Source of the DNA: Lingula anatina
Taxonomy: Eukaryota > Animalia > Brachiopoda
Assembly: GCA_051362555.1 (NCBI GenBank)
Contig: CM120649.1
Span: forward strand, 16,258,567-16,322,566
DNA: 64,000 nucleotides
Direction of reading: 5' to 3'
Positions 18,901 through 58,574 of this stretch are shown in pieces. Position 1 is the first letter of the stretch. The number at the start of each line of letters is the position of its first letter. The notes beneath the pieces were generated by a model. That model searched no databases. It worked only from the letters and a program-made list of their open reading frames with translations, and was not told where the DNA came from. A program made the translations under genes and the position numbers.

Positions 18901-19167
18901 AATGAAGAGTACTTAAAGGAGAAGTTTGGTCATTGTCTGTATACCATTAGAAAAAAGGTTGTAGATGAACACCATCCAGCAGAAATGTTGATGTCCTTGG
19001 CGGACTTTCTTGAGTAAGGGCTGTGTGCCGATGTAGATGAAAGTTTTAACAGACAGCTAAGCATATTTAAAAAGAAAAAAAAAGTATAGTTCTGTAGTCA
19101 CTCACACTATATTTGTAAGCATTAAGATATCTCACAAACCTTTGATCATCATCATCATCATCACCAT

Positions 19168-19199
<32 letters not shown>

Positions 19200-20811: not shown

Positions 20812-20851
<40 letters not shown>

Positions 20852-21595
20852 TCCCTCTCACACACACACACACGCACACACACACACACACACACGTACA
20901 GTCAGCCCATATCCCATACCAAGTACTAGTATATGAAAGACTATGCGACGAACTAAAATGTCAGCTTATTGACGTATGCTGTAACTCACTTAAAATAAGG
21001 CGGATGTGGAGAACAAAAAACACAGACTTGTTGTAAAGACATGTTACTTAGCACGGGTAACCATGCAGAACCCTGACTAACCTTGGCTGTAAATTTCACG
21101 TAGCCTTTATAAGTAAAAAGAGGGGTGCGGAGCTTTACACCATAAGGGTTTCAAATTTAGTTACAAAATTGAAAAAAATTGACTGCATCATGTAAAGCCT
21201 TGAAGTGGCCATGACATTAGATATTGTAAAGTGCAGCCTTGATATTTCATTACCCTTTCCACAGGTATGTGTCCCGCAGACGTCGATGCCGTAGACCTTA
21301 TCAAATATCCCAATATTTCGAAGGCCGCCATCTACAACGTCACAATAAACGAAGGAGACATGCTCTACGTCCCGGAGGCGTGGTTTCACCAGGTCCGCAC
21401 CACGGAGGGAGACACTAACATGGGGCTAGCTCTTTATCTGAATCACACTTCGTGTATCACCAGGTGCCCAGATACGGATGATATAGAGTTTTTAGAAAAC
21501 TGCATGGAAGCCAGGAAACAAACCCCAAAAGGTGGGTGATTCTGCTGGTGATCATTTGAAAGTGACTTGCTGTATTTGGCAGACAATTTGCACAC

Positions 21596-21666
<71 letters not shown>

Positions 21667-22307
21667 AAAGAAGGATCATTAATGAAGTGAAAAAATATTT
21701 AAACTCGTTAGATAAAAACCGTCAACTTCAGTTCAAATATTATGGGGAAAAACGTAAGTGAAGAGGACCGTTTGTGGTATGTAAGCCCTCTCATACCCAC
21801 TCTCAGTGACTCTTGGGCACGCCTAACAACTTATTTTTGATATATTTAAAGTTCATTAATTTCTTTTAAAAACCCGTCATTTATCAATATATTCCAGAGA
21901 TAACTTGCAACGAAAGAACTGACAACATTCCATACAGCGCAGTGGTGGAGAAGTACAAAGACATCTATCCCCGACTTCTGATTCATGAAGAAAAACAGAC
22001 AGAGATGAAAACATCGGTCACGACGCTGTTACAGAGTGGACATAGCAGTACGTGAACATATAAACTTACTGTTTTTGGTATACAAGAGCAAAGCAAAGAC
22101 GACTTGTTCAGGGTGGTAGGCTTCGGGAAGGGAGTTTAAAAATCATTTTTATGATGTCTTTATTAGATTTTATGCTTTCCTTTTCAATTATTAGAAGCCA
22201 TCTGTCTGTATTAGATTTTATGCTTTCCTTTTGCTTTCCTTGCTGTCGATCACTCGCTGTCCTTTCAGTCAGCGATTAGATGAGTACCACAGGAGGACTA
22301 AATAACC

Positions 22308-22364
<57 letters not shown>

Positions 22365-23831
22365 GCTGCCCTAAGTATTTTCACAGCCAGTGACTTTGAT
22401 GTTTTGTATGTTATCAACATATTGTGTAGATACATTTCATGTGCAGCCCTATTTTATCAGAAGATAGCAGACAATAATGTTGTAAACATCATAAGAAAGT
22501 CACTATTTCCTCGGTGTGGTCGCTTCTTTGTATGAGTGTACGTATGTGTGCACTTTTATCCCCATCAAACTCGTAGATTTGAGATTATCATGTATTTCCC
22601 CCAAAATGAGATGTTTAATTTTTATCTATTCCACAGTGCCGGTCCAGGGTTTAAGCCTCACGAGGCTAGGTAAAGAACAGTTAGGGACGACTGTACGGCA
22701 CGCCTTGCTGCTCGGATACAGGTAAGGCGGATAATTCATCACCTTTTGAAAATATGATTATCACCAAATGCCTTAAACTATCTCGTGTGCGTTAATTTAC
22801 TCTGCTTATATTTATGGATTTTTTTTACCCCAAACCAAGACATATAAAGGTGATATGTCCGCCGAAGACGGTTGCTTTACGTTCTAAATTTTATCCTGTA
22901 AAATGTTTTTTTATATTGATTGGTTTTTGTTTCATTTAAAAAATCTTTTTGACTTAGATTTTGTCATGTTTTTTCCAATCTCCAGACTTTTCCTCACGGA
23001 CCCAGACGACGACAGCGAAGACGCTTTGGGGTCAATTTTAGCTGATAACCAACACTGCAAACGTGAAGACGTTTTCGTAGTTGTCAAACTTGACTCCACT
23101 TTGGAAGGAGACGCCGTTAGAAAATCGATCAAAAGATCAATGGAGAGACTAAAGACAGACTACGTGGATTTGGTTCTTTTTCGAGCGCCGATATGTGACA
23201 AAGATCAGGAAGGATGTGAAGCGCGCCCAGGTGGTTGGGAAATATTAGAAGAACTTCACGACGCTGGAACTATTCGTTCTCTTGGGCTTAGCGGTTTTAA
23301 GATTTCACAAGTACAACGGCTGGTTGCTTCGGCCAAAATCCGGGTTTCAGTTGTCCACGCTAAGTTCGATATTACTTATCGCAACACGGAGTTGAGGGAT
23401 TTCTGCAACCAGCACGGCATGCGTTTCATGGCGCGCAACTTCTTCGGTCCCCAAAAATTAAAAGAACTCGTTCTGAGCAGTGAAATGATTAAAATTGCTG
23501 CGAGGCTGTTCCGCACAGACACATCTACGACAATAATCAGATGGGCCTTGAATAAAAACATTACTGTAATCACCCCAGCAACTGACCTTCGACAGATGGC
23601 TTTTAATAGGCGTGCGTTGTTTTTTGACGTAGCGCCAGGGTCTTACCTGGACGACTTGGATAATTTTCCTCATAAAGCGTGATGAACGCATATTAATTCA
23701 ATTATAACTCAGTGGCGGGTACCTATTTTTAACTATATGTGAATTATAATTCAGAAATGTATATATTGCATATAATTATTATACAGAATTAAATTTGTCG
23801 TTTATGTACAAGGAAATTAACTTGTTCGGCT

Positions 23832-34323: not shown

Positions 34324-34330
34324 TATAAAA
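34324..34330 (+). promoter_or_regulatory. TATA box upstream of peptidase-ShKT gene A
   Basis: TATAAAA ~70 bp upstream of the ATG at 34396; an equivalent TATAAAA lies at 39224, ~60 bp before the gene B ATG. Confidence 0.55.
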
Positions 34331-34395: not shown

Positions 34396-37300
34396 ATGAG
34401 GATGGCCGGTGGTTGCATGAAGCTGTTTGTCGCTTTTATTTTGGTGTCTTGTGCAAAACGTGAGTACTTCCATATTAAATTATTAAAGAACGTATTATAT
34501 ATAACAATGGCTATTTAAAACTTTATTTTATTTCATTTACACGTTGCAACAGGGAATGTAACTACTAAGTCCAATTATTGACATGTGTGACGCACCTGTG
34601 TTTCAATTTTGTACCTTGTTATGCATTCCATAGGTCTAGAAACAAACTGCCAATAAATTTAGAAGTAAAAAGGCTAGCACAGTTCGGTAATGAAACTAAA
34701 AAACTTTTTTTGCTTGCAACAAAACAAATGTTGCTACTTCACCATATAGATAAGGAATAATGCACTATACGGACGCCTAACTAACTAAATAAATAAATAA
34801 ATAGATAAATTATTAAATAAATATTATTCAGGTTCAGTCCAGCAGGAGGACGCCGTAGTTACCCAAGCACCAATTAACGACATTAATTCTACCTACTTGT
34901 ACCTCAAGTTATATGGTAAGTGTTATACTCTTATACAGTATGCCTTTATTTATCACTATTTGATATGTTGGCACAAAATCAGTTTTCTGAATTCTTGGAT
35001 TGTCGCTGTTACGGATTGATAGGCTGTATGCACACTTGTCGTTTTCCCCCTCTCCCTACATCCCAAACCTCTGCGTGTAATGCGCAATCTCCGCAGCCAG
35101 GCCTTTTGCATATTTCAATTGTAGACAATAATTGCAATTACCACCAGAAGTGATTTTCAAATTGGCGTTTCTGCTTTGTTAGAATCTAATCTCCTCTTTA
35201 AATCAATTTTAATAAAACTATAATGTGATCATTATCTTCAGGAAAAGATCATGTTTATTCGATGCGTTCATATTTTCCAGTTGAAGAATACAATGAGACG
35301 ATGATGGAGGGTGTAATGGCGGCAGGGGGGCGCCCTGGTCAAGCCAGCAATACCCACAGTTGTGACTCCATCCGGGGAGTTCCGCAGAGTCTGCGCAGTA
35401 GAACTAACATGTATCCCAATGGACTGGGATACTTTTATCAAAAATATACAGAGGCGTACGGCATCCCGGTCTTAGGTAGGTTTCCGCCTCTATTTGTTTT
35501 CGGCTGGTACTTTGTTAATGTTTTTGTCTTTCTGCCTTTTTTCCCTGTCCATCTCCCTGTTTTATTTTTATTCTTTGTGTAACTCATTTCTTTTATTTCT
35601 GATTGCTTATTTTACTCCTTAACTTATTCTTTCTTTCTTTTTCTCTTTTTTCTTTTGTCTCACTTTTTTATAAGTTTTTTCTCCTCCCCTTCTTCAGCTG
35701 TTTCTATTTCATTCACGACTGACCAATATGAAGCAAATAAATGAAAATCGCGTCAGCAATTCTAAATTGTTTACATTTTCATGATATTGGAATTCTCGTA
35801 AGTTTCTCTGTTTGATCACCGTAGGGTCTCGTTACCTTAGCGACGACGCACTGAAGCGGGCGTGCTACACTGTGAGGTTCTTACTGGCTGACAGATATGA
35901 CGTCCGTAACTCGTACTACAAGCGTTACGGACGGTTTGCCATCATGGGACGAAGAGAGGTAAAGACTTATATATATTTTTTTTCATGTTTCATCTTTTTT
36001 TCTTTAAGAAAGCTAGTGTATAATAAATCCTTCCTTTTGATGCTAAATTACGTACGTTAATAAAAATTGCGTGTTGAGATTTAAACATTATCCAGAAGTT
36101 AACCTTGATGTTATTGACCTTCAGGTAACCACCAATATCCCAGAACACTCTTTCCTGGAACCCGGGTTCTGGAACCAAAGAGCACGTGGCCTAGGAGCTA
36201 CTGAGTCTGCGCCAGTTTCGACGGGAGCGGAAGAGAACGTGCTGTGCGAGACTGGCGACCGGTACCGTGAGGACATTGCTCTCCACGAGTTCTCTCACGG
36301 CGTCCATATTCTGGGAGCCAAGTACGCCATTAGAGGTTTCGAGAGGAGGTTGGCGGGTCTGTACAGCAGCGCACGTAGCCGAGGACTCTGGAGGGGTACA
36401 TACTCTCTGAGCACGAAGGAGGAATACTGGGTGAGTGGGTTTATCTAAGACTGGGTTCCCACACTTAGATCGATCCATCTGGATGGATCGACCAACTCCT
36501 TGGGGGTTCACGCTAAATTACTACCAGCTCAAGAGGCTTAAATGTCTGTCACGCCTACCGAATCAGCTAGGGTAAAGATAATTACCCCCTAACAGCTTTA
36601 CTATATAGGCGTGACAGACATTTAAGCCGGTTGAGTTGATTGCAATTTAGTGAGACTCCCCAGGGAGATAGATCGATCCAAAAATCTGTGGGAATGGTAT
36701 CTAAGCGCAGTTATTAAGAAAATCCAGCTTGGCTTTTTTTTCAATATGAAACAATTTAAAATTATTATTGAGTGAGTATAATAACTAGTTACTATACTCT
36801 TATCTTTAGAGATTCGTTTAAGAATATAGTTCTTTGTCACATCATAGCTCATATCGGTACACTTTTGTGTCCCTTTCACTGTTATTTATCACATAACACC
36901 ATATTTATGTGTTACGAACTATTTTAACAGGCGGAAGGGGTCCAAAGTTACTTTAACGTCAACGACTTCTCCGCGACCCCCAATGGCGTCCATGGTCCCA
37001 TTAACACGAGGTCTAAGCTCCAGAATTACGATCCGGCCCTTTATAATATCATCAAGGAGGTGTACCCATGTGGCAACACGTACATCAAACGGTGCGGGAA
37101 CAGACAGGAAATATATGGTGAGTTTTCATAGAAATAAACGCAGTGCATTTACAGCAACGAGAAACACCCAAACTGTTTTAAAACAACACACGTTCGGACT
37201 TAAGGCAATTAAACTGCTACACGAATTAGTGCTGATGTAAACCACTGGAAATATCTAAAGTAACTCTTTGGCACAAAACGTTACCAGTACGTGCACATTC

Positions 37301-38643
37301 CTTTTGTTATTACTTCTGCTGTTGTTGCTTCTATAGTAAATCTGGCAAGGGGACACCTCTGTCAAAAAGAAATTGTGAAGTAATCTGCAGGATAGTAGAA
37401 TTTTAGTCATGTATTCAGCATTTTTCTGTGATCAGATATCCATTTAAAATATTTGAGTAAATCACGGCAGTAGATCCTAATAGCTTATTATTTACAGGAG
37501 CACATTTGCTTTTTATATTGCAATCACATTTCACAGCCTTTTTCATTTTACAGCAAAAGAAAGAGCACAGCAACTTCGTTTAAATTGTGATTCAAACGGA
37601 GGCGGAGGGACTGGTGGTGGAACCGGTGGTGGAACTGGAGGGGGAACCGGTGGGGGGACCGGAGGTGGAACCGGTGGGGGAACCGGAGGTGGAACTGGAG
37701 GGGGAACCGGTGGGGGAACCGGAGGAGGAACTGGCGGAGGCAGTAAGTGTGGTTTAAAATACATGCATTTGTGTGTATTTTTTTCTTCAGGTTTGTTATG
37801 GCCAACGAAAAGGATATATTAATTTTACATGTAGATCTACATATACGGTACTTTTATGTCACTTTTTGTTTGTGCAGTTACATTTACCTGATTGTCTGGC
37901 AACGTTAAGTACAGTTATCAAATGCCGCCAAAGTCGATACACCTACAGTAGTATTTGACCATGTATCATTCCAGACTGTACGGACAATGACAACCGCTGT
38001 GCTGGCTGGGCGGGAAGAGGAGAGTGCGACAAGAACCCGAGGTACATGCTGGTCAACTGCCGGAAGAGCTGTCGCCAGTGTTCAGGTAAATATTCAGCTG
38101 GTAATAAAAGCATATTTTCTTATTATACTCTCTGCCATGTGCAGTAAATCCAGTGACCCACCCTCCATTAAATTCATACAGGTAAGGGTAAGCGTGATCA
38201 AATTTTAGGGCGGTTTATCTGCACATACTGGTAATTATGGGAACAGGGCCTTGTATTACAGGAGTTCTTTTTATATAATGGCGGTACTGGCACTATAGCT
38301 TATGCCGGATTGTAATTTTGGGTTGAACGTTAGGTGAAGACTACACGTTTTCGCTATCTGTCTACATACTTAATATAAGCACCTGTCACTGCTTCTAAAG
38401 TATATCAACACTTAATGGACCAATTTCCTGTGACATTTGAACAACTGTGTTCGATATATGCATGTATAAAAATTAACATTTTTTTCTTGAATTCCTGTTC
38501 TTCCAGGAGGAGGCGGCGGAGGAGGAGGCACCAACTGTGTGGACAGGAACATGTTCTGTGCATCCTGGTCCAGACGCGGGGAGTGTACACGCAACCCTAG
38601 GTACATGCTGACCAACTGTAGGAGAAGCTGCCGGCAATGCTGA
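34396..38643 (+). CDS. Secreted HEXXH zinc metallopeptidase (lethal-factor/zincin-like) + (GGGT)n linker + 2 ShKT domains, paralog A (~468 aa)
   Basis: Exons 34396-34459, 34832-34915, 35281-35475, 35825-35958, 36125-36430, 36931-37117, 37554-37742, 37975-38085, 38507-38643. Signal peptide; 'EDIALHEFSHGVH'...'STKEEYWAEGVQSYF'; ShKT 'CTDNDNRCAGWAGRGECDKNPRYMLVNCRKSCRQC'. Confidence 0.88.
36446..36704. mobile_element. Foldback (near whole-length palindromic) MITE, copy 1
   Basis: Arms pair along their length: ttcccaca/tgtgggaa, gatcgatc, ggggttcacgctaaatt/aatttagtgagactcccc, ggcttaaatgtctgtcacgccta/taggcgtgacagacatttaagcc. Second copy at ~56789-57023. Confidence 0.8.
37598..37742 (+). repeat. 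Coding 12-bp tandem repeat encoding the (GGGT)n linker
   Basis: ~11-12 units of GGN GGN GGN ACN inside exon 7 of gene A. Confidence 0.9.
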
Positions 38644-39286
38644 TGACAATCTTCCCGATATAAAGTTCAGTTTCTGTAATTTATAAAGTTTAGATCTACC
38701 TTCTTTGATTACGTGACTGTTGATGTAGGAGCGTGGTCACAGCGGTTTTCACGGTTCTCAACGGTTCTGTCTGGTAGTTGATGGACAGTGTTTTAGTAGC
38801 CTGGTACATAATTAAAATTGGAACAGCATTTTCCAAATTTTGCCAAGTGGGCACGTGACGTAATTTGTAGAAAAAATCAACTTAAAAACGTCGAATGTGA
38901 AGGCCGAATACGTTAGGGACATTCAAAGCCGTTGTTTTTTAATTCTCGCCTGGCTTGAATATTTTCAAATGTACTTGCAATTGTAAAGTAATGCACACAT
39001 TTTGTCATGTATCAAGAATGTGAATAAAAGTAAAAAGTGAATAAAAGTTTGTGTGGTATTAATATTTCTAGCTTTTTGATCCTTTAGTTACGACCTAATT
39101 TGTGACACACGATCTTACCGTGGCAGACGTTAAGAACGTGTGAGAAAAATGTCATATGGGGTGGTACGTAGCTAACGGAGAGACCGTAGACGACGGTGGA
39201 TTTAGATTACCCGTGTGTTTCTGTATAAAAGAGCTCTGGTGTCCAGAAAGAACACCTAAAGGGTCAGTGGAGGAATAAACGACACC

Positions 39287-42200
39287 ATGGCATGGTTCTT
39301 GACATCGCTGGCATGCTTGCTGCTGAGTGTCGTGGGTGAGTGGATATCGATAATTCACAAAAAATTACTTCATTTCTTAGCCTTAAACACGCGAAACAGT
39401 TCAAAAGAGGGCAGAAGAGATCTGAAATATCCCTTTTGTTAGTTTTCAATATTCATTGAAGACTTTCGGTTACGGCTAAATTGTCGTAGACATAAAAAGC
39501 GCGCCGACTCTAGACTAAAGTTTCATTATGAAACGGAACCATATTCTGCTTCCAATATTTCATGAAATGTGTTAAGAAGTGACGGTGCAGTTCTTGTCGC
39601 AACTGTTTTGAAAATCGTTAGTGTAATCTTGTCGCCGATTTGTAAAGGTGTGAGGAAACACGAGTCCATTGAAGACACGGGTTTCATTGCATGTGGGCCG
39701 TGTCATGTGCCCATTCTGTTATTATAAATACTTACATTTTTATTTATTTTTAAACTATTACTCTAAACATCAACCCTCCTTCTTATCCTTGAGTAATAAC
39801 AAGAGCAAAGCAAATGTCTTTACAATATGTACTATAAATGAGTATAAATGAATATTGTTTTTAATTCCATTAATTATTGTTTTTGATTCCATTAATATTG
39901 TTTTTAATTCCATTAATTAAAGTTCTCTCGTCGTTATCCCCCTATAACGTGCAAGTGTCCTACGTGGGCAGCCCACGTTCCCTCATCAATAATTTTATTC
40001 AACCTCATTGGGTCTAAGGTAGGAATGATGCATTTAGTTTCACTGTGTGTAGATATATAGATACAAAGCATATCTTTGCGTGCCCAAATGAGATCAAGTA
40101 GGCAAAATAATAGCTAAACACGGTCATCAAACAAACCCTGGATCAAAGCAAAATCAAACTTTTCCTTCATCATTATTGACTCACATTATTTTCCAATGTT
40201 ATCACCTAGCTGTACCAGTATCTTCGTCTGTGTTCATGAGAATGCTGACGTCACGAGGCAGCGAAAGGCCTGGGTCCCCCACGAATTCCCACAGCTGTTG
40301 GAGCGTTCGATCTGTCCCCAATGACCTCCGCAGTGCAGCCATTATGGGCCCTAACGGCCTTAGCACGTACTATCAGAAGTACACTGAGGCGTACGGGATA
40401 CCAATATTAGGTAGGGAGTTGAACATTGTATGTTATTGTTCCTAATTGTTTTGATGGACGATACAATTTTATGATTAAAATTTTTGAAAAATAGACTCCT
40501 TGTTTTTATAGTTCACAACTTTTAGATATTTTGAGAATCAGATTTTCACAATGAATTTTTACCCTGCATTTGTGATTATATGATTTTTACCCTGCTTTGG
40601 CATTATAAACGATAAGTTTGTTGTATTAAAGGTACACTCCATCCGATTTACCTGCCGAGACTGATTTTCCCGGGAAAACGAGCAATTTTCTGGTACTTAC
40701 GAATCATTTACCAACCCTGCCTGCAGTTGGCTCCCACCTTTGATAAAGTTTATAAAGGTTGACTAACTTTACTTTTCCATTTTACAAAACAATGCGTATA
40801 CATGTATTTCCTTTTGATAAAACAGCTTCATGCTGCTCTAATCCTGGCAGGTTCTGTGCATGTGCCGGAAGATGCGGTCAAACGCGCATGTTATGTCGTA
40901 AGATTCTTGTTCGCCGACAGACAAGACGTCCGTCGCTCCTACTACAAACACTTCGGTCGTTTCGCCGTGTATGGCCAGAACGAAGTCACCCGAAGTATCC
41001 CTGAGCATGCGTACTTGGATCCATTTTGGGACACTCGAGCACGTGGCCTCGGCGCCACTTTGACGGCACCCGTTGCGACCTGCGCGGAAGAAAACGCTCT
41101 CTGTTACTCCACCGACACCTACGACCCCAACGAGGACATTGCCCTGCACGAGTACTCCCATGCCCTGCAGAGTCTCGGGGCATACTTTGCTGTGCCAGGG
41201 TTTGAGGCTCGCTTGAAGAGCGCGTACAGCAGTGCCATATCACGTGGTCTGTGGGCCAACACGTATGCCGGTACTGACGAGGTCGAGTACTGGGTAGGTA
41301 TCAGTATCCACTGAGTTAGACAATTATGTAGGCGATCATGTTGGCGTCTCCTATGCAAGTGACGCTTTCTAAATGTCTATTATCAAAATTAAGGTGAATC
41401 CTATTATGATGATGATGATGATGATACCACAGCGATTATTGTAACTATATTAAACATCCAACAACCAAGATTTTCTAGGACAGTACCATTTATATATAAT
41501 TGGCTTTTTCCCTTCTGCAAAGGCTGAGGCCGTACAAAGTTATTTCAACGCCAACACCCACCGAGACACTGTGAACGGCATCCACGGTCCTGTCAGCACA
41601 AGAGACAAGCTGAGGGCCTACGATCCCGCCATATATGCCCTGATCCAGGAAATCTTCCCCTGTAACAACAACTACATTACCAGATGCGGCAATAGCCAAA
41701 CTCTACGTTGTAGGTGTCTTGTTGCTGTACTGTTTTCATTTCTTTACTGTGAAGGTTTTATAAATTCGTTTGTCTAATTAGTTATCTGTTTGTCGTATGT
41801 TTGTTTGCATTGGTTCGTTTCTCTTTGTCTCTTTTTCTCTCTATATATGTAAGTTTATTCATCTAAGGTTTTTCAGATTTAAGCGTTTGTCCCTTTTTTT
41901 CAATTTTTGCGTATTTTTATTTACTTGTTTATTCATTTTTCTATATCTTTTCCCTTATTATGCCAACTGATCAAGGATTAACGCAACATCCCTTGACTGT
42001 TTTAAACCTTCACTTTCTATCCCGACATAACTGCATGGTTATTCACCATATTCCGCATCTAAATAATTTCTGGAACACAATTTATTTGATCGCATTTCAG
42101 CTCAGGAGCATGCTCAGCAGTTGAGAATGAATTGTGCCGGGTCAGGAGGGGCTGGAACTGGAACAGGAACCGGAACCGGAACCAACACCGGAACTGGGAC

Positions 42201-42616
42201 TGGAACAGGTACAACTTTAAGTTTTATTTTCAGTAGAAACAACAAAGACATGTATCTTGGTGTAACGTATTGTCTGCCAATGCGTTTGCTGCAAGAAAGT
42301 TGGTTAGAGTTTGGAAAATAAAACCATAAGAAGCGCTCTATTTTAATTTTTAATACCTATATGTAAGTACCCCACCCCCCGGTATATACATAGGTAATTC
42401 TCTGAAGAATAAAATTACAATGAATAAACCGTGCTATTTGTGTTGATTAGGGACCGGTACAGGGGGCAGCTGTGTGGACAAGAGTGAGAATTGCCAGTAC
42501 TGGTCTCAGACCGGAGAGTGTTCCAAAAACCAAGCCTACATGTCTCAGAACTGCAAGAAGAGTTGTAATCTCTGCTCAGCTGGAGGCCAGGGTAATTAGA
42601 AGCACGCACGCGCGCG

Positions 42617-42657
<41 letters not shown>

Positions 42658-43741
42658 GACAATTGCACTACATTGCTTGGCATCGTTTTACAGCTACAGT
42701 AGTCGGCATCCATCTTTAAAGGACAAATTGGTAGACCCGTACCCCTTTCAAAAATAAAATAATTCCCCCTGCAGTACCAATAATCGACGTTTTTTAACTA
42801 TATTTTCTCGATATTTCCATTTCCATTTCTATTTTTTTTTCTATTTCTATTTTTGTTCATAGATTTATTATTCACTAAGTAGACTGAATGCATTCGTTTT
42901 TATAGGGCTCAATCTGTGCGTGTTTAGAGTCAATGTGTTTGTGTTTAAGGAGTCAATATATGTTTGTGTTTATAGACTCGATGTGTTTGTGTTTGGCGAC
43001 TGCATGTGTTTGTGAGTAGGGAATCAATGCATTTGTGATTAGGGACTCGATATGTTTGTGTTTATTAGGAGTCGATATGTTTGTGTTTAGAGGGTTTGTG
43101 TTTTTGTGTTTAGGGACTCGATGTGTTGCGTTTAGGGACTGAGTATGCTTGTGTTTAGAGAATCATTGTGTTTAGAGAGTCATTGTGTTTAGGGACTCAA
43201 TCTGGCAGCTGCTCAGACCAGAGCCAACACTGCAAGTACTGGTCAGAGACAGGGCAGTGCACTCAGAACGCCGCCTATATGCTGAAGAACTGCAAGAAAA
43301 GCTGCAACCAATGTTCAGGTACAGGTAGGATCATTTGTGTCAGCAATATTATCATTATTTGTGTAACCAACCCGGGATCATCGCCCAGAATTTCGGAGAT
43401 AAATGTATAAACGTACCTTTATTATCAGTAGATGTCTCTGCTTTTCTCACTCTGTAATTTTTATTAATCTTAAAAGAGACAAGGCCACAGCCACCATATT
43501 CAAAACTGTATACTTCTGTTTAGACCTTCCTAATTCCTTTTCCCTTTAGTGCATGCTAAGTTCATGCATTTATTTGTTAGGTTAATTTAATACATGTGTT
43601 TATTCGTCAGGTACGGTAGGACACACAGGAAGTTGCGCAGACCAAAGCACAAACTGTCAGTACTGGTCAGATACTGGAGAGTGCACCAGGAACTACACCT
43701 ACATGTCCCAGAACTGCAAGAAAAGCTGCCGCCTCTGTTGA
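39287..43741 (+). CDS. Secreted HEXXH zinc metallopeptidase + (GT)n linker + 3 ShKT domains, paralog B (~463 aa)
   Basis: Exons 39287-39335, 40210-40410, 40851-41293, 41523-41709, 42101-42208, 42451-42591, 43193-43324, 43611-43741. Signal peptide; 'EDIALHEYSHALQ'...'DEVEYWAEAVQSYF'; three ShKT modules 'C.D....C.YWS.TG.C..N..YM..NCKKSC..C'. Confidence 0.88.
42895..43200 (+). repeat. Degenerate ~20-23-bp intronic minisatellite (tgtgtttagggactcgatgtgtt-like)
   Basis: About 13 diverged units ending at, and including, the real splice acceptor 'gtgtttag|ggactcaa' at 43192/43193. Confidence 0.8.
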
Positions 43742-45005: not shown

Positions 45006-47954
45006 TCAACAGACGTCGCCATTCACTGTGACACAGTCCCATTCAGGGTGAGACGACTTGACCAGATAGTTGAACAAACCGTCCGACATGGTATGGCGTC
45101 TCCCAATGAACTCTCTAGCAGCCGGTACGGCATTGCAGTCCCCGCCCGCCATGTCCAGCAAATCTACCAAGTCATTACGTATTTCGAACAGCTTGTCTGT
45201 TGTCGGGACTGTATAGGTAGGGTGGCTGGCCCCAGACCGCGCAAAGCTCAGCGGATAGATGAGGTAGCACTTCTGGTGCGGGAAAAGTCCAGATATCATG
45301 CGCAGAGCGTCGGTTGTCGTGAAGCTGCTGTCCAGAGGACTGACGCGGCTTAATATGGCATCGAGGGTGGAGTTGACCTTCATCAGTTTGACGATCCTGT
45401 CGGCAATCCCAATCAGTTTCGGTAGCTGTTCCTTGGTAAAAGGACCCAAGATGTCTTCCAGAGCGCCGTTGACCTTGTTATGGAAATCGGTGTTCAGGTA
45501 ATTTTTCAAGCCCCGCAGGGCAGAGGATATGCCTGAGACTCTTTGTTTGGAGTAAGGGCCAGACAAACCGTGGTTGTCTTCCAAGCATTTTTGGGTCTGA
45601 GCAAACTGAAGGGAGAGGGCAAAGTTTGAAAGTGGTTGGAGTCTTCCTCCTGGTTGTGGCTTAAAGGACGCTGCTAGCCTACTAAGGTCTGGTAGGCGTT
45701 TAAGTCCGGAGCGAATTTTGTTTCGGATTAGATCGGCGATGCTTCTCTTGCTTCGCGTACACATTTTGTTACGGAGGTCACTTAACTGTACCTTCAAGCC
45801 GGGAAAGGCGTTGCCAAGATCGACCGTGACCTTAAAGACGTTACGGAAGGCAGTGGTAACGCGTTTCTGCAGTTCCGGCCAAGCCGATTGGATCTTTGCG
45901 CAGTCGGCCTCAATGCGACGCAAACTGTGATCAACCATCTTTTTAGCTTCTTCCAAAGTCGATTTGGCGGACTTTAACTTGTTTTCGTACTCGCGCTGTT
46001 TTCTCTTGTTGCTCCCAATGCCGAGGAGGTCCAGGATATCGCCCCCGGAGAAAGGCACGGGTACGGGCAGCGTCGACAGAAGATTTTCCACCTCTCTCTC
46101 CAAGAGCTGGTTCACTATTCCTTCCAGACCCGTGTCCACCTTGTTCTTTATGTCGTCTAGCTCAGTTTTAAGAACTTCAAGATCTTTTATGTCAATTGTC
46201 TGGTTTACACCTAATTAAAGATAACAAAATAAAAGAGTGAAATAGGATAACGTTAAAGTCGTTGCTTAGATAAATATAACAGTGTAAATGATACTTAAAG
46301 CTTTGTAAGATTAGTACGTGTTTATCAAATAAATTGCTCATTTTGCGCCTATGAAAGACAAATTGTCCTAATATAATCCATTTAACGTAAAGCACATTTA
46401 CATAAATCAAAAATAATAAGTGGGAATGAGGATAATTTCTTTTGTTTGTGAATCTGTAAAAGGGACATCTGCACAGAATTCCCAAGACACGCCCTCCTGG
46501 TGCCACGTCATAAAACACCCCCACCTGCCTCCACCCATACCAAACGCCACCTACCGGAGAAAGAACCATAGGAAGACCTCAGCCTTGCAATGGTGAGGAG
46601 TTGGTATACTTCAAATGTCAGCTCCTTGAAAGCATCGGCGACTGCGGCCACATCAGACTGGAGGCTGACCAGCCTGTTCCGCATGTCCTTGCAATTGTTG
46701 TATACAGAGCTCCTCTTCGCCGCGAGGGAGCTGGAAATAATACGTTATTATTATTATTATTATTATTATATTCTGATACAATGGCCGAGATATAACAATA
46801 CAATACAAGGTGATTATATATTTACAGTTATTTTGTAACGATAACAAATTGATAATGATGAATGCCTTGGTTTTAAACATTTGAGCTACGCTGTATTATG
46901 ACATCAGGATATACTTATAATCAAATAATACCCCTGTCATCTTAAAAAGATATTTTTGGTATCCCACGTTTTGTTTTAAAAAAAGTCCCCTAGCAATAGA
47001 GTTAACATGTTTTTAATTTAATTTAATTGTTTAATACAACGACGACATATTAATTGCTAAGCTTAAATTAGTTTAGTTTAAATCTGCGTGTACCATAATG
47101 TTAGTCACAAGTGCAATTAAAATACTCACTTAACCTCGCGCTGTAGACGCTGGACTTGCGGTTTCAGGTCACATATCTGAAGACAAGAATAAAGCGATGC
47201 TTTTCTTTACTTCATTTTGTGTTTCATGTAGAAATAAAAAAAAGAAATACAAATTCTTTTATTTAAAAAGCAAATAAAAATATATAATAAAAAGTAGCTA
47301 TCCATTACTACAGCGTGCACATTCCTACTAATCCATGAGTTGAATCACTTTGATAATTGATGGAGAGAGAGAGAGAGAGAGAGAGAGTGAGAGACAGAGA
47401 GAGAGAGAGAGGTCACTTACGTCTGGATAATCAGGATAGTCCGGACATTTTGATAAAAATTTGTCTACGATGATGTCAATGATACCACCGCTTCCTAGAA
47501 CTGAATATCATAATGCACATTGAATATTATAATGCTTAAAACACCCTAAAATTTGTATAAATGTCCATTTTCACCGTTACGAGTAAAACGCTTCCGTCTC
47601 AATCTCCATTATGAGGGTGATGTAAAAATTAGAAACTTAGAACCCAAAAGGAAGTTTATAGGTACATTAGGTACATTGTACATGCAGTAATTCTGTGAAC
47701 GGCTTTAAAATCTATGTACCTTGTTCATTCACAAAAGCAGATTATTCTCCAATGTTTTGTTTGCAACTTATATGCTGCTGTAGGAGGGGTACATGTAGTT
47801 GGAAATTTCAAGTAAATCAATTTAAACTGCACAATTATCTAGCAATATTCTCGGGTCTTTAAGATAACAATTACAACTCACATCCCGATACGGGGCCGGC
47901 AGTGGAGAGTATTAAGAGTAGCGCCAGTCCAAACACATTCGCCACAGCAACCAT
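45006..47954 (-). CDS. Secreted, predominantly alpha-helical protein of unknown function (~526 aa)
   Basis: Exons 47954-47882 (signal peptide MVAVANVFGLALLLILSTAGPVSG), 47500-47421, 47176-47130, 46730-46555, 46210-45006; phases consistent (1581 nt). Heptad-like helices; RSKR site at ~45744-45755. Confidence 0.82.
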
Positions 47955-51432: not shown

Positions 51433-54400
51433 TCACTGGCGGTGTCCGCTTTGTTCGTCCTGCTTCAGAAAGTTTATATTTACAAAATGCACCTCCATGC
51501 ACATATAAACAGTGCGCTTTGTTAGTCGCGATTTTGCTCGATTATAGAAGTTCCTTTTGGTGTAGAATATCCTAAACCCGAGCTCGTACAGTTTGTTGAT
51601 GATATCGACATCTGCTTGTTTCTTAGGGATGTCATGAAACTCTAAAGCAAACTGTTTGACTTGGGATAACACACCCTCGCGGTACATTGCCTGTAAACTT
51701 GGCCATTCGCTCAATTCAACGTCCATTTTCAGGTAGTCCAGTGTCACCTTAAATAAATATATAGCTAACAAGTATCATCTAAAATAAAGAAAGAAAGAAA
51801 TGGACAAGATAGATGTACACATACAGAAGGAGAATGCAACAGATTGTTTACATACACAACAAGGCGAGTGAATCGTCCCTCAAACCACAAAACCCCTTTA
51901 GCATCGGTATTAACACCCCCTTCCTCTAATAATAGAAAGTCTGAAACAATTTTACCAGTATGTGACGTACGTTCTCATGTCCAAGAAGTCGCTTTATGGA
52001 TCCAAGCGTATAAAGTTGCCACATGTTTTCATTGGTTCCGTTGCTTCCAGATATACCCAGATTGTGGAAATATATGTTTCGGGAACGCTTAAAGTCCTTT
52101 TTTCCTATACTGGAAACAAGTTAAGAGAGAAAACTGTGATACTTTTTCGCGTGTTATGCTCAGTGAGGCTTGTTAAAGAATTAATCATCTATCCTATACT
52201 GAAAAAAAATTAAATGGGGATATTCATGTGTCAATGAGACAATGATATGAAGGGATGGTTAAGTATCGTCCGAAAATACGAATGAAAAAGTTATGAGTCA
52301 AAAAGCAAATATTCACTGCTCGCATGTCTGACTTGTTATTTGTTATCGTTTTTTATTGGGGGAGGGGGTGTTACATTCCTTAGGGGGTGTTACATTCCTC
52401 AGAAGCGAAGAAATAGAATATGCCTATTTTACGCCCTCCGATAAATTCGTCGCTGCTTATGAACAAAAGGTACCAATATTTTGCTTATTTCGAATAGTGC
52501 TTACCTTGGATCGAAACAGTGCACTGTACAATTTTTGGCCTTGCCCATGTAGTCGTCAAAAGACCAGTTGTCAGCGATGCTGGATACGAAATAACAAATA
52601 TTTACATCTGCGTTAGTATCATTTTTGCACCGTATTTAACTTACTTTAAGTCATTTTCACATCAAACGCTATATCCAACGGGTGCCTTACCTTCCGAACA
52701 TAAAATACTGATGAGGGTGGAGTAACAAGTATACTGGTATGGGGGATTTGACTGTGTTGTTCGAGTGAAAAAAAAAGCTGTAACACCAATATCATATAGT
52801 AGTTAAGTGGCTGCCTTACACGCTAATACCCCCTTTATACCCCCTTTACACTGGACGGCGTCCTTTCTGCGACCATGAAATTTGGCATCGCTGTGGTCTT
52901 AATAAAGAGACACGAACATTGATTTTGTATCAGAATGAATGCTCAATGATCGGCTAGTTGTCGGCAAGTAAAGCAATATAATTTTTTACCTCTCAAATGG
53001 GGCCGTACTGCTGGACGCAGAAAAAACGCCGTCCAGTGTAAAGGGGGCTTTACCAACATACATGCACGACGGACTTCCGAAGTTATTATTATTATTTTTA
53101 TTTTTATCATATCTATAGCTTACTATACATCGACAGGACTTCATAATGGGCGGACATAAATTACTGACATGGGTGTAGCAGAAATAAAAATCCAGAAGTA
53201 ACACAAGTCCTACCCATATCTACTTACCCAAAGGAGTATACTAAACATTTTCCCCGTTTCATATTGTATGGCGGGTCCAGGCACACCTCCCAGCCGCCGT
53301 CTTCTCTTTCTCTGGTGCCTGCTCTTATCCGGTTTCGGCAGTCGAACTGTAACTTATGAAGATATCTGGAAATTGAAAAAGGAGCCAAACTATTGCATTT
53401 ATTGAGGGATCACTTGGGAGAAATTAGTTCAGCCAGACCAAAGAGCAGATAGACAACTTTTAAATAGGCAAAGGATTTTCCTCAAATAATGTTAATAATT
53501 TATCAATTGTACATTACACAGAAACTTATGTAAAGCTTGGATTTTAAGAAATAAATATTTTATTATATTTCATTCAATTTTACGATATTATTTTAAAGAC
53601 GCTTAAATTGTAAGTGAATGCACGTATGTAAGCAGTTAAATACAAACAACGTGCGATAAACCTTTTAAACAGCATTGTTTTGTTGGAAATGCTCTTCTCA
53701 AAGATAGGAAAGATGTTCTTGGAGATCCAGACCCTGGATATTTCCTTGGCATCTTCTTTTGCTGGTCTCAGTTTAAGATAGTGAGTGCTTCCCGCTTCAT
53801 ACGCGTAGAACAAAGATTTAACATCCATCCTTTTTAATACTTTAAAGATATTCACCTTTTGGTTGCTTGAGGTTGGAATAATTCCGATTCTTCCTTATAA
53901 ATACTCATAGCCCAAATTTCTCACCAGAAGTGGACTTGTTGGCCCATTTTGCCTCTAAAAACACTTGTTCCTCTAGATCGAGTTTTCCAAAAAATTTATT
54001 TTTTACCCTACCCTATTTTGAGTTATATATTTTTTTTCAAACCTATCCTTTAACACTAGTCCAACGCAAGCTGCCTGCATTTAAGCTTTATTTTGTTTCA
54101 CGGGAATATTTCATTGTGTGTACCTGAAATAGTCCAGCTCAATCTTATCTGATATTGCACCAGCCCCCGACAGTCTCGGAACGGCTTCTCTTGAATACTC
54201 AATGTCGTCTGCTAGATTGTAGAACGTTTTCAGTGGAGTAGGTTTTATGGTTGATGCTTTTGTAACTTGGAGTTTCTCCAACGCCTGGAAAAAGATGAAA
54301 ACTAAGTCATCCGTTCCAATCGTATTTTGAATAAACGTTTTTATGTAACTCCAGGCTGATCATGGTTTTACTGTGCCACTGAAAGTTACATTTGTTACTA

Positions 54401-55134
54401 CTGTTCCTAGAATCAAACTTAAACACTTTCAGGAGATAAATGCCTCGTGCTCGTATGTGTATTCATATAACACTGAACAACACGAGTCTCCTGCATATCA
54501 AAGGGATAACAACTACTGTATTCATATAAGTTCCACAATAAATACATTGTAAACAGCACCTAGAAATAAAAAAAAACCTCCACAAAAAATGCGGTTATTG
54601 CAATTGTTCCAAAATAGGTGCTTGCCATTGGACCGGGAGGACCTTCATAGATGGTTTCCCTCCGTAATAATCTCTTAAGAGATGATTACAAGTAAAAAAA
54701 CGTCTAACTTTGAATGTCGGAACGGATATATTAACCATGGGCAGGTTTGAATGCGTCTTAGTTTTCCCCAGGGAAATCCGTTTCATGGCACTTTCCCTGC
54801 CAAAATGAAGAGTTGTTATCCCTTAAAACGCGACACAAAATTATAAATGGGACACGAAGGGCCCGGGAATGCCTTATGGACACATTAAATGGGGTGGATT
54901 TAGGCCGTCTTCTGAGTCTTCCGGAAGACGGTCAGATTTTCAAGTTTACATTGACGGGTATCTAATTTTTCTGTCGGAAGACGGTCAAAAGTGGAGGATG
55001 GATCAATAAAGATAATTCGGAAGCCTGTCAGAAAATATCTCTGGATCCGCCCCTGCATTTTAACTCGTTCATCTTTGTACTTTCATACAAGAACACAAAT
55101 ATATTGTTAACGGCGGTTGTGGCAGGGTCCTCCT

Positions 55135-55171
<37 letters not shown>

Positions 55172-55497
55172 AACGAAGGAGAATTCCTTCTCAGAACGGT
55201 GCTTACCAATTGCAGATCTGACCTACTGCTATTTAAGGTTCTCAATGCAGATCTAAGGATGGACACCTCATTTGCTAAATAATAAAAGTTAGACAATTAA
55301 TCTTGAATGTTTTTGTAATTGATTCTATTTCGCTTATGTATCGATCTTACTTAAGACAAAATATATGATTGCCAACATGTTTTCATTAGAAATCTGTGGA
55401 AAAAAAACACACCTTCACGCATCCAGAGGACGGAAAGTCCCACCAGCAAAACGACTAGGAAAAACGACAAGAGTTTCCACATTCTCCGCCCGGTCAT
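51433..55497 (-). CDS. METTL24-like (Methyltransf_22/FkbM-related) type II membrane methyltransferase, copy 1 (~326 aa)
   Basis: Exons 55497-55413 (TM 'WKLLSFFLVVLLVGLSVLWM'), 55274-55207, 54284-54124, 53365-53228, 52579-52505, 52109-51971, 51747-51433. Motifs 'DGGWEVC', 'CLVYSFGI..NWSFD', 'C.VH.FDPS', 'LDYLKMDVE.SEW', 'VKQFALEFH'. Confidence 0.88.
52838..53049. mobile_element. Harbinger-type MITE in an intron of METTL24-like copy 1
   Basis: TIR CCCCCTTTACACTGGACGGCG / CGCCGTCCAGTGTAAAGGGGG with TTA on both flanks; not present in the paralogous intron 61678-62011. Confidence 0.75.
54889..55055. mobile_element. Short TIR element inserted in copy 1 only
   Basis: Ends GGGGTGGATTTAGG ... CTGGATCCGCCCCTG (same family as 28043-28275); the paralogous site at ~63285 'gacacatttaacccattc' is empty. 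Confidence 0.72.
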
Positions 55498-56788
55498 AGT
55501 TTTTAATTCTACGAAAGAAAAATGTAAAAATGTTTACAGATAAAACAATTATAACTACTATCTGTAGCATGGCAATATTCATTTATGGATCCCTTGGTTC
55601 AAAAAGGTAACCCCTTTAAGGTACTCACTAGATTTTCTTTATTCCCCCTCCTCCCCCCATTCAAAACAACAACTACAAAACACGGTATAAAAAAAACGAA
55701 GAAGCACAAAACACAACAAAACAAAGACAATTTACACCCCCATTTTAGTAAAAATACCTATCATTGACTACCGTTCAGAATATTTTAACTTGCCCCCCCC
55801 CCCCTCCCCCTTTAGTTAAATCCTGGAGCCACGATTGATATGGCAGTCATATATGGAACCCTATTTGTCTGGAATCTGTTTTCAAATTGATGCTATTCAT
55901 CTGAAATCAAGATAACATTTGTTGCCTAAACCTCAGCCCACTAATCTCTCTCTCCCCCTCCTCCTCGGTTTACCTTCTTGTGTTTGTCTGTAAAAAGCAC
56001 TACAAGAGCACTGATATCTAGCAGAGAAAAATTGCATTTACTAAAAGACATAACAGAAAAAAACATTTTGAAATTCGTAATCAGTATATTTCCCCTCGTG
56101 AGCATCTGCTTGTCTTGAAATATTAAATAAACATTGCGAAGACATACACACAAATATACAAAGCATCGACGATGAAAATATATATGCCCCCCTACCCTCA
56201 TCGAATCAAAAGATGGAGGTCAAGTAGATCTTTCATACACTGCATATACCAAACCATCTGATCTTTGAACCGCTAAGATTAATACAATTCCAAAAAAATT
56301 CAACCATTACAATAAATTGAGGCGTCCACGACTATTTCCGCATCACCGTATGTCTGAATTGAAATTAACTTAACCTTACTTACCCTTACAACTGGTTATA
56401 AAGAATCTTCCAAATACTTCGCAACCAACCCCTTGGATTTATTATACCTATACTCGCAATGGTGATCCGCAACTTAACGTTATAACTTAAAGTAATTTAT
56501 AACATGCAGTATCGAAGATGCAGCCTCCTTATAATAATATTTTCACGTAGCTAATCATACCAAAAGTTCTGAATTAATGAATGTTTGATATTATATAATG
56601 AATATTTGATATCATGGTGTCTTCACCGTATACCACTGGATGTAAACTCTATTCATAAAACATTTGAGGTTACCAGTAGATTGAAGAAGAATCCAACTTT
56701 GTGCACGGATTTTATATAACCCTTATATTATACATGAACTGACAGGAGTGAAGACAGAAGCAAACTTTTGGCCCGAAATATTCAGCTC

Positions 56789-57023
56789 TAAGAGTGCATT
56801 CCCTGATCGAGATTTAGATCGATCCAGAGATTTAGATTTAGATCGACCTTACACCCTGGGGCTTCACGCTAAATTGCAGTCAGCCGAGCGCGCACCATAG
56901 TTAATTACCCCCTTACAGCTTTTAGTAGGCGGGACAGACGCTTAAGCCGGCTAAGCTGACAGTAATCTAGTGAGACTCCCCACAGGGATAGATCGATCTA
57001 AAATCTTTGGGAATGGGGTCTAA
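56789..57023. mobile_element. Foldback MITE, copy 2 (homologous to 36446-36704)
   Basis: Shares 'ggggcttcacgctaaatt', 'taggcgggacagac..ttaagccgg', 'tagtgagactcccc', 'atagatcgatc.aaaatct.tgggaatgg'; TAA flanks. Confidence 0.75.
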
Positions 57024-58477
57024 ATCAAATCCGATCTACTTTAATTACGTAAAGAGATGCAGCGCTTGATAAGTTTTCTCAGATAAAGTTTATTACCAGT
57101 GTCAAAGCTAACTAGAACCTCAAAACCATTTATTCAGTAGATCTAAGCTTTGACTGAAAGAATGTCTGTGATTTCATGATATCAGGTCAGTTTTCAAACT
57201 ATGAGTGTTTCAGACATGGTAGGTGCTAGTGGTTATTTTGTAAATTGGGATATCTTTGGTAATTTAACCCATATCAAGAACTTGAGACACATTTCTGTTT
57301 AAGGGAGGCTATCGGATCATGTTGTCTGCGCATGCGCATCTGTAGTGTAGTTTCAGTTTCTTACCAGTAGGTATAACAAACAGGCTAGGGAAAGCGTTAT
57401 ATCTCTTTACGTTACTATTAATAGCTAAGTAATAAAATGAGGATATGAAATGAAAAGCTGCTTCAATGGATATACAACACGTCGGTACTTGGTGGGTTAA
57501 GAAGATTCCTGCCACCCCCCTCCCCCGTCTGCAGCCTTAAGGTTGATCTAAGAGCAGTTATATTTACTCTGGCCAATCTAATAAAATTGAAACGTGTAAA
57601 GCACCTCTACAATGACAGTAGGCCTACGCATATAATAAATCCATACGACTCATACGAATGCTTGAAAAGCACGTAAACCACAAAAAGGGGCGGTGTCTAG
57701 CAGAAAGCAGAACGCCAGCGAATTCCGATCTCCTACTACAAAAGAATGCCTAGGGCAATGAAGTGTGGTTGGAAAATTAACCACAGGCGTACTTTTTTCT
57801 TTGAGAACATGTCTTTAGGAATTGTGTTTGTAGCAGCACACAGTGCTGATTTCTATTCTTTTTTCACTTTCTAAAGTTGTTGGGCGTGAAAAGGGGTCTC
57901 ATCACCTTCACGTGATTCATTTTCTAGGTAATGAATTTATATCACATTAATCTTCGAACAATAGGCCTACATGTAGGCTACAGAATATCTTAAACTTTTT
58001 GCATGTCAAAACAACATTTTAGATATAAAGTGAGATGTCACCATCACTAACGATAGCAGTGTAGGAAATGGATAATCCAGACTGAAATCTGGGGAAGTTA
58101 GGGAATTAAATTTTTTGGATGGGAAGTGGGTATGTTGGCTGTCTAATTGTGACAGCCGTATTTGACATAGACATACATGTACGTACATGTCTGTATTGTC
58201 TCTCTTGTTAAGTGACCAATTATACATGATCTAAAGAAGAAAAACAATAACATGTACTTATATATCTAATGAACATATATCACTGTATCCATTTTCGTGA
58301 ACTTACATTTCTTATTTATTTATTTATTTATTTATTTATGTATATGGCCCACAGGATTTTTTTATATGCCCCACTGGTGACTTCTTCATTTATTTATCGT
58401 GAGAAAATTTACAACAAATGCTTCCAACGTATTCGAACTGTATTTGTACCGTATTTGCAGCGTATTGTACGTGTGAG

Positions 58478-58574
58478 ATAATACACTGTCACCCGAGCGA
58501 TATATGTCATAACACCTCGAGCGGCAGCGAGAGGTGTTCATGGCATATATCGCGAGAGGGTGGCAGTGTATTAT
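58478..58574. repeat. ~97-bp inverted repeat/hairpin
   Basis: ataatacactgtcacc..gcgatatatgtcataacacctc pairs with gaggtgttcatggcatatatcgc..ggtggcagtgtattat. Confidence 0.8.

Follow-up and report, generated by a model that had tools for sequence, protein, structure and literature searches.

Tandem Lingula anatina genes for likely secreted zinc peptidases with a predicted Pro-Pro-endopeptidase fold and ShK domains

Two neighbouring genes of Lingula anatina, tandem paralogues that we call A and B, encode likely secreted zinc endopeptidases, judging from their sequence, with a catalytic domain whose predicted fold is that of the bacterial Pro-Pro-endopeptidases (PPEPs) and a tail of ShK domains. 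Both genes are ordinary members of an old inherited family common to jellyfish, mussels, starfish and many bacteria. We give about even weight to the fuller reading, in which these secreted PPEP-fold enzymes of the old family cut proline- or hydroxyproline-rich extracellular proteins; the candidate substrates would be collagen or mucin-like chains and the role digestion or matrix turnover, with bacterial gene context and the fold together suggesting the proline preference.

Two spliced genes in tandem

Within the window, the whole stretch of 64,000 nucleotides analysed here, gene A (positions 34396-38643) consists of 9 exons encoding 468 amino acids (1407 nt) and gene B (39287-43741) of 8 exons encoding 461 (1386 nt), both on the forward strand. 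The proteins are 55% identical across 406 aligned residues, and no further paralogue was found within the 64-kb window. All 15 introns have GT-AG borders, and the reading frames contain no internal stops. In RNA runs picked by their species label (Lingula anatina), reads crossed the joints between exons 2-3 (4 reads, 34915 to about 35281), 6-7, 7-8 and 8-9 in gene A and between exons 4 and 5 in gene B (3 reads, 41709 to 42101). Splicing of both genes is thus confirmed by RNA reads, in agreement with a preliminary description of the locus as intron-containing. Expression was low in the runs read, gene A being present in some and absent from others, and 32 of the 37 codons that differ between RNA and window are synonymous; the listed changes reflect purifying selection.

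TATA-like boxes of putative function lie upstream of gene A (34324-34329) and gene B (39224-39229). The first exons (34396-34459 and 39287-39335) carry the start codon and a hydrophobic stretch resembling a signal peptide (mean hydropathy 3.0 over 9 residues, hydropathy being the sole criterion applied). Exon 2 of gene A (34832-34915, the last position being that from which the RNA joint leaves) encodes an N-terminal extension, possibly a pro-segment. A dibasic furin-type site was seen in 3 of 7 proteins surveyed (out of 19) and was not used as evidence. The conserved domain begins, with RPG..HSC, in exon 3 of gene A (35281-35475; a second in-frame acceptor lies upstream, at 35242) and exon 2 of gene B (40210-40410). 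In gene A the peptidase domain continues through exon 4 (35825-35958), whose 3' intron has no counterpart in gene B, into exon 5 (36125-36430), which carries WNQRARGLG, HEFSH (36284-36298), a Tyr (36401-36403) and the predicted third-ligand Glu (36422-36424); in gene B, WDTRARGLG, HEYSH (41147-41161), Tyr (41264-41266) and Glu (41285-41287) share exon 3 (40851-41293). The domain ends in exon 6 of gene A (36931-37117, AEGVQSYF...YDP...YPC) and exon 4 of gene B (41523-41709, donor GTAGGT, read-joined to 42101), and the following exon supplies a final Cys and a linker, (GGGT)n in gene A (exon 7, 37554-37742) and (GT)n in gene B (exon 5, 42101-42208).

The preliminary description had recorded two paralogues with a set of peptidase motifs, flexible linkers and two or three ShKT domains, and every one of these elements is present: LHEFSHGVH and LHEYSHALQ, EYWAEGVQSYF and EYWAEAVQSYF (a phase-0 intron follows the Trp in each gene), TRSKLQNYDPALY and TRDKLRAYDPAIY. 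In both proteins the Glu lies 42 residues beyond the second His and 7 beyond the Tyr, and in an alignment with PPEP-1 this Tyr and Glu are in register with residues whose roles are taken from PMC12828418. The predicted site has zinc bound by the two HExxH His and the downstream Glu, water activated by the HExxH Glu, the oxyanion stabilised by the Tyr, and a substrate-binding edge formed by the W..RARGLG segment. HExxH is kept in 384 of 421 family domains, its His are invariant in the family alignments, and active-site motifs hardly differ between bacteria and animals, W..R.RG being present in 38 of 43 rows from animals and 59 of 61 from bacteria. Three disulphides would be specific to the animal members.

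Two ShK domains follow in gene A (exon 8, 37975-38085, Pfam PF01549, 34.2 bits; exon 9, 38507-38643, also a Pfam match, ending in the stop) and three in gene B (exon 6, 42451-42591, 41.4 bits; exon 7, 43193-43318, 33.9 bits; exon 8, 43611-43741, 36.7 bits, then the stop). Reads suggest an acceptor for exon 9 of gene A up to 6 bases further downstream. All five exceed the Pfam cut-off (33.9-41.4 against 20.9 bits) and have the six-Cys ShKT pattern; a ShK exon has its closest solved structures in the ShK domains of a nematode metalloprotease and of MMP23. The Lys-Tyr channel-blocking dyad occurs in none of the five, the residues at its position, placed by Cys spacing, being RY, RY, AY, AY and TY, with Arg-Tyr in the domains of gene A. 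This dyad is neither necessary nor sufficient for channel block, and in MMP23 an Arg at the same place still permits channel modulation (PMC6409789). The ShK domains would act as tethered binding modules rather than free channel blockers.

Comparison with known zinc peptidases

The fold was compared using models of two relatives, from Mytilus and a sea spider, whose domains have 68-69% identity to that of gene A; neither is a window protein itself. Over about 170 aligned residues these models match the PPEP/M34-group fold of an alpha/beta N-domain and a helical C-domain. Foldseek, a search proposed in the preliminary description, returned PPEP-2 as the best match (E 2.6e-4). For the Mytilus and sea-spider models, respectively, Z was 11.9 and 12.8 against PPEP-2 (rmsd 3.4 for both, 170 and 171 residues aligned), 11.6 and 12.5 against PPEP-3, and 9.7 and 10.2 against anthrax lethal factor; all of the best eight fold matches are bacterial proteins. 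The predicted fold of both gene products is of the Pro-Pro-endopeptidase type, with PPEPs closer than lethal factor. The earlier placement among enzymes of PPEP or lethal-factor type is thus borne out by the relatives' models; the label 'lethal-factor-like' captures a kinship of fold but overstates it, because PPEPs resemble the models more and neither group shows significant similarity in sequence.

Like PPEP-1, -2 and -3 (M34 group, EC 3.4.24.89), the best fold matches, the proteins are predicted to be secreted and to combine HExxH with a Glu ligand and an oxyanion Tyr, and ahead of the active-site helix a Trp and a GLG segment can also be aligned. They differ in identity (13-17%, with a profile E of about 0.4) and in the Cys pairs, introns and ShK domains added in animal proteins. 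The PPEP S-loop, which helps to hold the prolines, is apparently shorter in the family, its Lys101/Trp103 falling in a gap of 6-7 residues within a weak, 0.6-bit alignment. PPEPs have been described only from Clostridiales and Bacillales, and membership was defined by BLAST E<=1e-25 to PPEP-1 or -2 (PMC8610288), a value of which our 90-sequence profile, at E 0.43, falls far short. Among solved structures, profiles found no significant match (E 0.24-0.54), and the single-exon search gave one unrelated match only.

The lethal factor catalytic domain (Pfam ATLF, PF07737) shares the fold and the metal-ligand arrangement, and a few bacterial family members pass the ATLF cut-off. The single window exons scanned matched neither ATLF nor M90 (PF06167), and the animal relatives scanned score below the curated cut-offs. 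In contrast to lethal factor, A and B lack the protective-antigen-binding delivery domain, the conserved domain being preceded by only about 35-70 residues with no Pfam match. Likeness to MtfA/peptidase M90 consists of low-scoring Pfam matches among relatives, of which one exceeds the cut-off, and of a fold match to 3dl1, which we take to be MtfA, at Z 7.4-8.1, below PPEPs and lethal factor. MtfA itself is a bacterial protein of the cytoplasm.

Signal peptide, zinc peptidase, linker and ShK repeats are also combined in astacin-ShKT proteins (M12A) and MMP23 (PMC6409789), but in the catalytic domain of A and B the ligand is a Glu and HExxHxxGxxH is missing. As the preliminary description had maintained in separating the pair from astacins, this pattern is found in neither gene and in 0 of 421 family domains, and neither of two wide fold searches lists a catalytic domain of an astacin or MMP among its best 50 matches, a listing that does not by itself exclude either family. 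The non-ShK exon translations scanned (n=9) matched no Pfam family at E<=1, and no NCBIfam model for the domain was found with 13 proteins scanned. A literature search, with subscription papers and supplementary tables (which could mention the family) outside its scope, yielded no description of it. The family thus has its own model in neither Pfam nor NCBIfam; we tentatively propose, as one part of a wider reading given below, that it is sister to PPEPs and lethal factor.

Distribution and origin of the family

The family comprises about 4,700 sequence clusters. Bacterial members come from at least nine phyla, with relatives at 45-48% identity, and the animal branch includes cnidarians, molluscs, annelids, nemerteans, a sea spider, echinoderms, hemichordates and amphioxus. 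The ShK tail is frequent among animal members, the layout of A and B recurring in mussels, amphioxus, acorn worms and sea cucumbers; the domain is also fused to ZP, TSP1, Ig, EGF/LDLa, fibrinogen, discoidin and adhesion GPCR modules. Mussels, amphioxus and echinoderms have multiple copies.

In the unrooted tree the animal-type rows make up one side (support 100/99), and genes A and B lie inside three animal-only sets starred in it; gene B pairs with a protein from a nemertean (98/87, long branch). Recent transfer is rejected, since both genes nest inside the animal branch, which extends from cnidarians to amphioxus. In a careful 60-row tree, the AU test rejected grouping A and B with bacteria (p-AU 0.024), the constraint moving the pair no further than the base of the animal branch. 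In a larger, quick tree the same grouping was not rejected (p 0.727), because the free search there ended 24 log units below the constrained tree. The phylogeny with bacterial and metazoan matches that the preliminary description had advised thus places A and B within animals. Its suggestion of bacterial derivation keeps the support of the close bacterial relatives and loses any lineage-specific form: as the family is inherited from cnidarians to amphioxus, a bacterial origin must be ancient. That inheritance also supplies half of what it had set against such an origin, a broad, vertically inherited eukaryotic family.

The family was probably taken from bacteria before the cnidarian/bilaterian split, in what would be a single transfer into animals. 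An appreciable, though lesser, chance goes to a family that is ancestral to eukaryotes or moved from animals to bacteria, so that no bacteria-to-animal transfer is required: the tree, being unrooted, does not give the direction, its midpoint separates animals from bacteria in two of three trees, and other eukaryotes may hide among the matches. This alternative is opposed by the absence of any named non-animal eukaryote among the family matches listed, by the number of bacterial phyla and by the uniformly bacterial top fold matches.

Bacterial gene context and candidate functions

A proline-handling enzyme is fused to the domain or encoded within about 4 kb at 33 of 80 bacterial loci, against 1.64 expected, a comparison that uses a partner list compiled after data inspection and related, non-independent genomes. 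The partners are cyclophilin (16 fusions, one nearby gene), DPP-IV (2 fusions, 10 neighbours), Xaa-Pro peptidase (3 neighbours) and proline racemase (one operon); they are spread over about six separate lineages and occur in both main bacterial groups. In another bacterial relative the fusion partner is proline iminopeptidase (475.9 bits against a cut-off of 400). This proline context is a new observation. Such an enzyme is absent from the other 47 loci. The bacterial rows scoring highest to the animal domain (L001-L004, L002, L007) and those of Chloroflexota and Deinococcota show no proline partner. GH127 neighbours (5 loci) did not count towards the proline evidence: one of them was checked, and its best NCBIfam match was aceric acid hydrolase, below cut-off.

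Fold and bacterial context together point to a family of proline-directed endopeptidases; carrying this to animals is a step, because the best-scoring bacterial rows have no proline partner. It is conceivable, at well under even weight, that an undescribed proline-directed family, thousands strong, serves bacteria in the breakdown of collagen and hydroxyproline-rich proteins, that animals captured it once and then fitted it with disulphides, introns and ShK, ZP, TSP1 or adhesion-GPCR modules, and that it provides collagen or mucin cutting independent of MMPs and astacins. Slightly less probable is that fold and history are the same and specificity in animals is broad or different, serving general digestion or protein processing, with proline preference limited to some bacterial branches. 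The partnerless bacterial rows nearest by score, the seemingly absent S-loop (in a weak alignment) and the varied fusion partners, which suggest varied uses, favour this, whereas the near-identical active-site motifs and the presence of proline partners in both main bacterial groups argue against it.

We think it unlikely that the proteins are mucus or immune defence proteases that clip bacterial surface adhesins while ShK domains anchor them in mucus: PPEP-1 and -2 do cut bacterial adhesion proteins (PMC8610288), the family is multi-copy in several groups, some members carry fibrinogen or discoidin domains, and gene A appears in only some RNA runs, but expression is low and the codon changes indicate purifying selection. 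A venom effector, with a lethal-factor-like protease directed by toxin-like ShK domains, as the preliminary description had entertained, is very improbable despite the fold kinship, the nemertean affinity of gene B and the Arg-Tyr of gene A, because the same layout occurs in filter feeders such as mussels and amphioxus, no ShK domain has Lys-Tyr and there is no room for a delivery domain.

For proline-directed cutting, bacterial gene context offers a direct, cheap handle on the substrate for the whole family, and proline-cutting endopeptidases also serve as reagents. The PPEP/lethal-factor fold has so far been described from bacteria, and the animal version is kept across at least eight phyla. 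The family is a candidate case of very early gene capture from bacteria and, if intact in animals, would represent a class of secreted protease new to invertebrate biology.

Structure and expression of the tandem pair

Both genes lie on the + strand with 643 bases between them: gene A (34396-38643) comprises 9 exons (1407 nt, 468 aa), and gene B (39287-43741) comprises 8 (1386 nt, 461 aa). Every intron is bounded by GT-AG, the reading frames are open, both proteins begin with a hydrophobic N-terminus, and a TATA-like box is located 63-72 bases 5' of each start codon. Five ShK exons scored above the Pfam cut-off, and the remaining 9 exon translations scanned matched no Pfam family. The tandem zinc peptidase-ShK genes proposed in the preliminary description are real. 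The two proteins are 55% identical across 406 residues, and most intron positions within the peptidase domain, including that of the intron separating EYW from AE, are common to both genes; judging from the sequences, the duplication therefore postdates intron gain. No third copy was found within the 64-kb window.

RNA evidence came from 7 of the 9 runs bearing the same species label, compared with the window. Runs X7, X8 and X9 gave low-depth coverage of gene A exons, and reads joined exons 2-3, 6-7, 7-8 and 8-9; X5 contained a trace on exons, and X1, X2 and X4 next to nothing. Gene B attracted few reads, chiefly from X8, and three reads linking exon 4 to exon 5 place the donor at 41709. Reads and window disagree at several percent of sites; among the coding differences listed for gene A (39, with more existing and seven mixed or single-run rows excluded), 33 affect third positions, and of the 37 codons, 32 are synonymous. 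Hundreds of partly matching RNA reads were attracted by an intronic element resembling a MITE-type dispersed repeat (36440-36700; 62-nt inverted arms at 36496-36557 and 36606-36667, 82%), and thousands from another abundant transcript match a short intronic stretch of gene B (41413-41492).

A degenerate 23-nt minisatellite (42904-43200) extends as far as the exon 7 acceptor of gene B. Beside gene B, on the - strand and facing it, is a 402-aa open frame (45006-46214); part of it resembles a coiled coil, and no Pfam family scored above the cut-off. The regions 10393-23682 and 51433-60900 contain ordinary animal neighbours, namely sulfotransferase, GT2 glycosyltransferase, cupin, aldo-keto reductase, LRR exons, an Integrator subunit 10-like exon and two similar methyltransferase exons.

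Fold, extent and history of the family

The structural search of the catalytic domain was run on models of relatives from Mytilus (pLDDT 81.7) and Pycnogonum (73.9). These matched the Pro-Pro endopeptidases PPEP-2 (Z 11.9 and 12.8, respectively; rmsd 3.4, ~170 residues) and PPEP-3 (11.6 and 12.5), lethal factor (9.7 and 10.2), Certhrax (8.6 and 9.6) and 3dl1 (7.4 and 8.1), with concordant Foldseek results (E 2.6e-4). The lethal factor/PPEP-type fold originally suggested was correctly read. At the sequence level, the link is faint (profile E 0.24-0.54). A weak alignment places the His pair, Tyr and Glu of the family in register with PPEP-1, in which Tyr178 is assigned to the oxyanion hole and Glu185 to zinc binding (PMC12828418). 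Both genes have a His2-to-Glu spacing of 42, shared by 309 of the 361 domains with the Glu motif, and a Tyr-to-Glu spacing of 7. The PPEP S-loop falls opposite a gap in the family alignment, itself weak, and the family lies outside the sequence criterion used to define PPEPs (PMC8610288). Genes A and B very probably encode zinc endopeptidases of the PPEP/lethal-factor fold, and the predicted enzyme would work like a PPEP/M34 gluzincin, yet outside the PPEP family.

A single-exon search yielded 14 longer relatives and a profile search 2,433; at E<=0.001, the profile search gave 4,728 clusters (50% identity). The top full-length matches, from Mytilus (60% across 428 aa) and Haliotis (53%), have the same linker and ShK tail. 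Among the matches listed, named relatives include cnidarians (Hydractinia, Clytia, Rhopilema, Actinostola, Xenia), molluscs, Owenia, Lineus, Pycnogonum, echinoderms, hemichordates and amphioxus, and none from sponges, insects, nematodes, vertebrates or non-animal eukaryotes. Animal-type members also bear ZP, TSP1, Ig, EGF/LDLa, fibrinogen or discoidin domains; in an Acanthaster planci protein (P0167), the peptidase domain, with intact HExxH, forms the N-terminal ectodomain of an adhesion GPCR that also has GPS and 7TM domains. Five animal-type members (P0098, P0115, P0137, P0164, P0217), recorded whole from long ENA contigs, are perhaps intronless copies. Tandem two-domain forms (P0017-P0083, including two named Bacteroidales) often lack HExxH in the first domain. 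Bacterial genomes contained 575 relatives in 600 stretches. Identity of the gene A domain is 66-69% with its closest animal relatives and 45-48% with the best bacterial matches.

In a 279-row tree, animal-type sequences formed one branch (support 100). A more careful 60-row tree, derived from a 115-row set by dropping 12 animal and 43 other rows, comprised 31 animal-type sequences (5 labels assigned in this analysis), 24 named bacteria and 5 others. Here, the animal branch had support of 100/99, and genes A and B were placed within three starred sets made up of animals alone, close to Pycnogonum, Owenia and Lineus. Forcing them to the bacterial side was rejected (p-AU 0.024), whereas the same constraint was not rejected on the 115-row quick tree (p-AU 0.727), for which the free search was suboptimal. 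Cys motifs common to animal rows are missing from bacteria, [FYW]PC being present in 42 of 43 animal and 0 of 61 bacterial rows. The animal branch, the nested placement and these motifs indicate, at the level of sequence, that genes A and B have been inherited since at least the cnidarian-bilaterian ancestor. The possible bacterial derivation initially proposed thus does not apply to an event after that ancestor. Given the wider diversity among bacteria and the bacterial identity of the best fold matches, a single older bacteria-to-animal transfer is likely, though the trees are unrooted; overall, the balance tips modestly towards an ancient bacterial origin of the family.

Proline-handling partners of bacterial relatives

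Neighbours were typed at 80 loci retained from the 575 bacterial relatives, using Pfam scans of selected ORFs (56, 83 and 51) and tblastn across all loci with named neighbours as queries. A proline-handling enzyme was fused or nearby at 33 of 80 loci, against 1.64 expected from cyclophilin, DPP-IV and M24 match counts (70 in 30.8 Mb, five of these genomes), although the 33 represent about six lineages, not independent events, and the partner list was compiled after data inspection. They include in-frame cyclophilin fusions (16 loci), DPP-IV fused (2) or neighbouring (10), neighbouring Xaa-Pro peptidase (3), downstream proline racemase (1) and cyclophilin at 2 kb (1). Such partners are missing at 47 of 80 loci, among them those of the bacterial sequences with the highest scores to the animal domain. 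L018 carries consecutive genes for DPP-IV, Xaa-Pro aminopeptidase and the peptidase, and L042 and L060 extend into a non-DapA aldolase-family gene accompanied by a racemase or FAD oxidoreductase, a set resembling hydroxyproline catabolism. In one family protein, the peptidase is joined to a proline iminopeptidase that scores above the NCBIfam cut-off.

At seven loci (L015, L032, L040, L050, L061, L071, L080), the peptidase is fused to a VHL beta domain; the DPP-IV of L018 also bears one. Human VHL binds hydroxyproline, and the bacterial domains are possible hydroxyproline-peptide binders. A proline preference is a reasonably confident prediction for bacterial members and an even bet for genes A and B. 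In two Bacteroidota genomes, the gene immediately upstream of the peptidase encodes a thiol-activated cytolysin C-terminal domain (L025:2073-3815, L026:2210-3898).

ShK domains and significance

The nearest solved structures to the window ShK domains are those of a nematode metalloprotease and MMP23, and the domains, as read from sequence, are most likely tethered binding modules. The venom role suggested earlier is highly improbable. At the position of the Lys-Tyr dyad of ShK, the five domains have RY, RY, AY, AY and TY, and none Lys-Tyr; this dyad is neither required nor sufficient to block channels, and ShK modules are frequent on non-toxic metalloproteases (PMC6409789). Among fetched relatives, 7 of 155 ShK domains have the dyad. 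As binding modules, the ShK domains, freed by the linker, may anchor the protease on matrix, mucus or food; the exported protein would fold with three additional disulphides, hold zinc by His, His and Glu, and cleave extended proline-rich chains.

No paper treating this family was found among the article texts searched, although supplements could list such proteins. One paper mentions lethal-factor-like transcripts of a myxozoan with no detail (PMC11792419), and another, on nemerteans, deals with ShK domains solely on CAP proteins (PMC10674772). In an automatic, mostly molluscan Atlas cluster, 17% of members carry the lethal factor label ATLF, and database labels thus already touch the family. 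Genes A and B are unexceptional representatives of an old family, shared by animals and bacteria and apparently undescribed, whose interest lies in its testable proline-directed function and possible early transfer.
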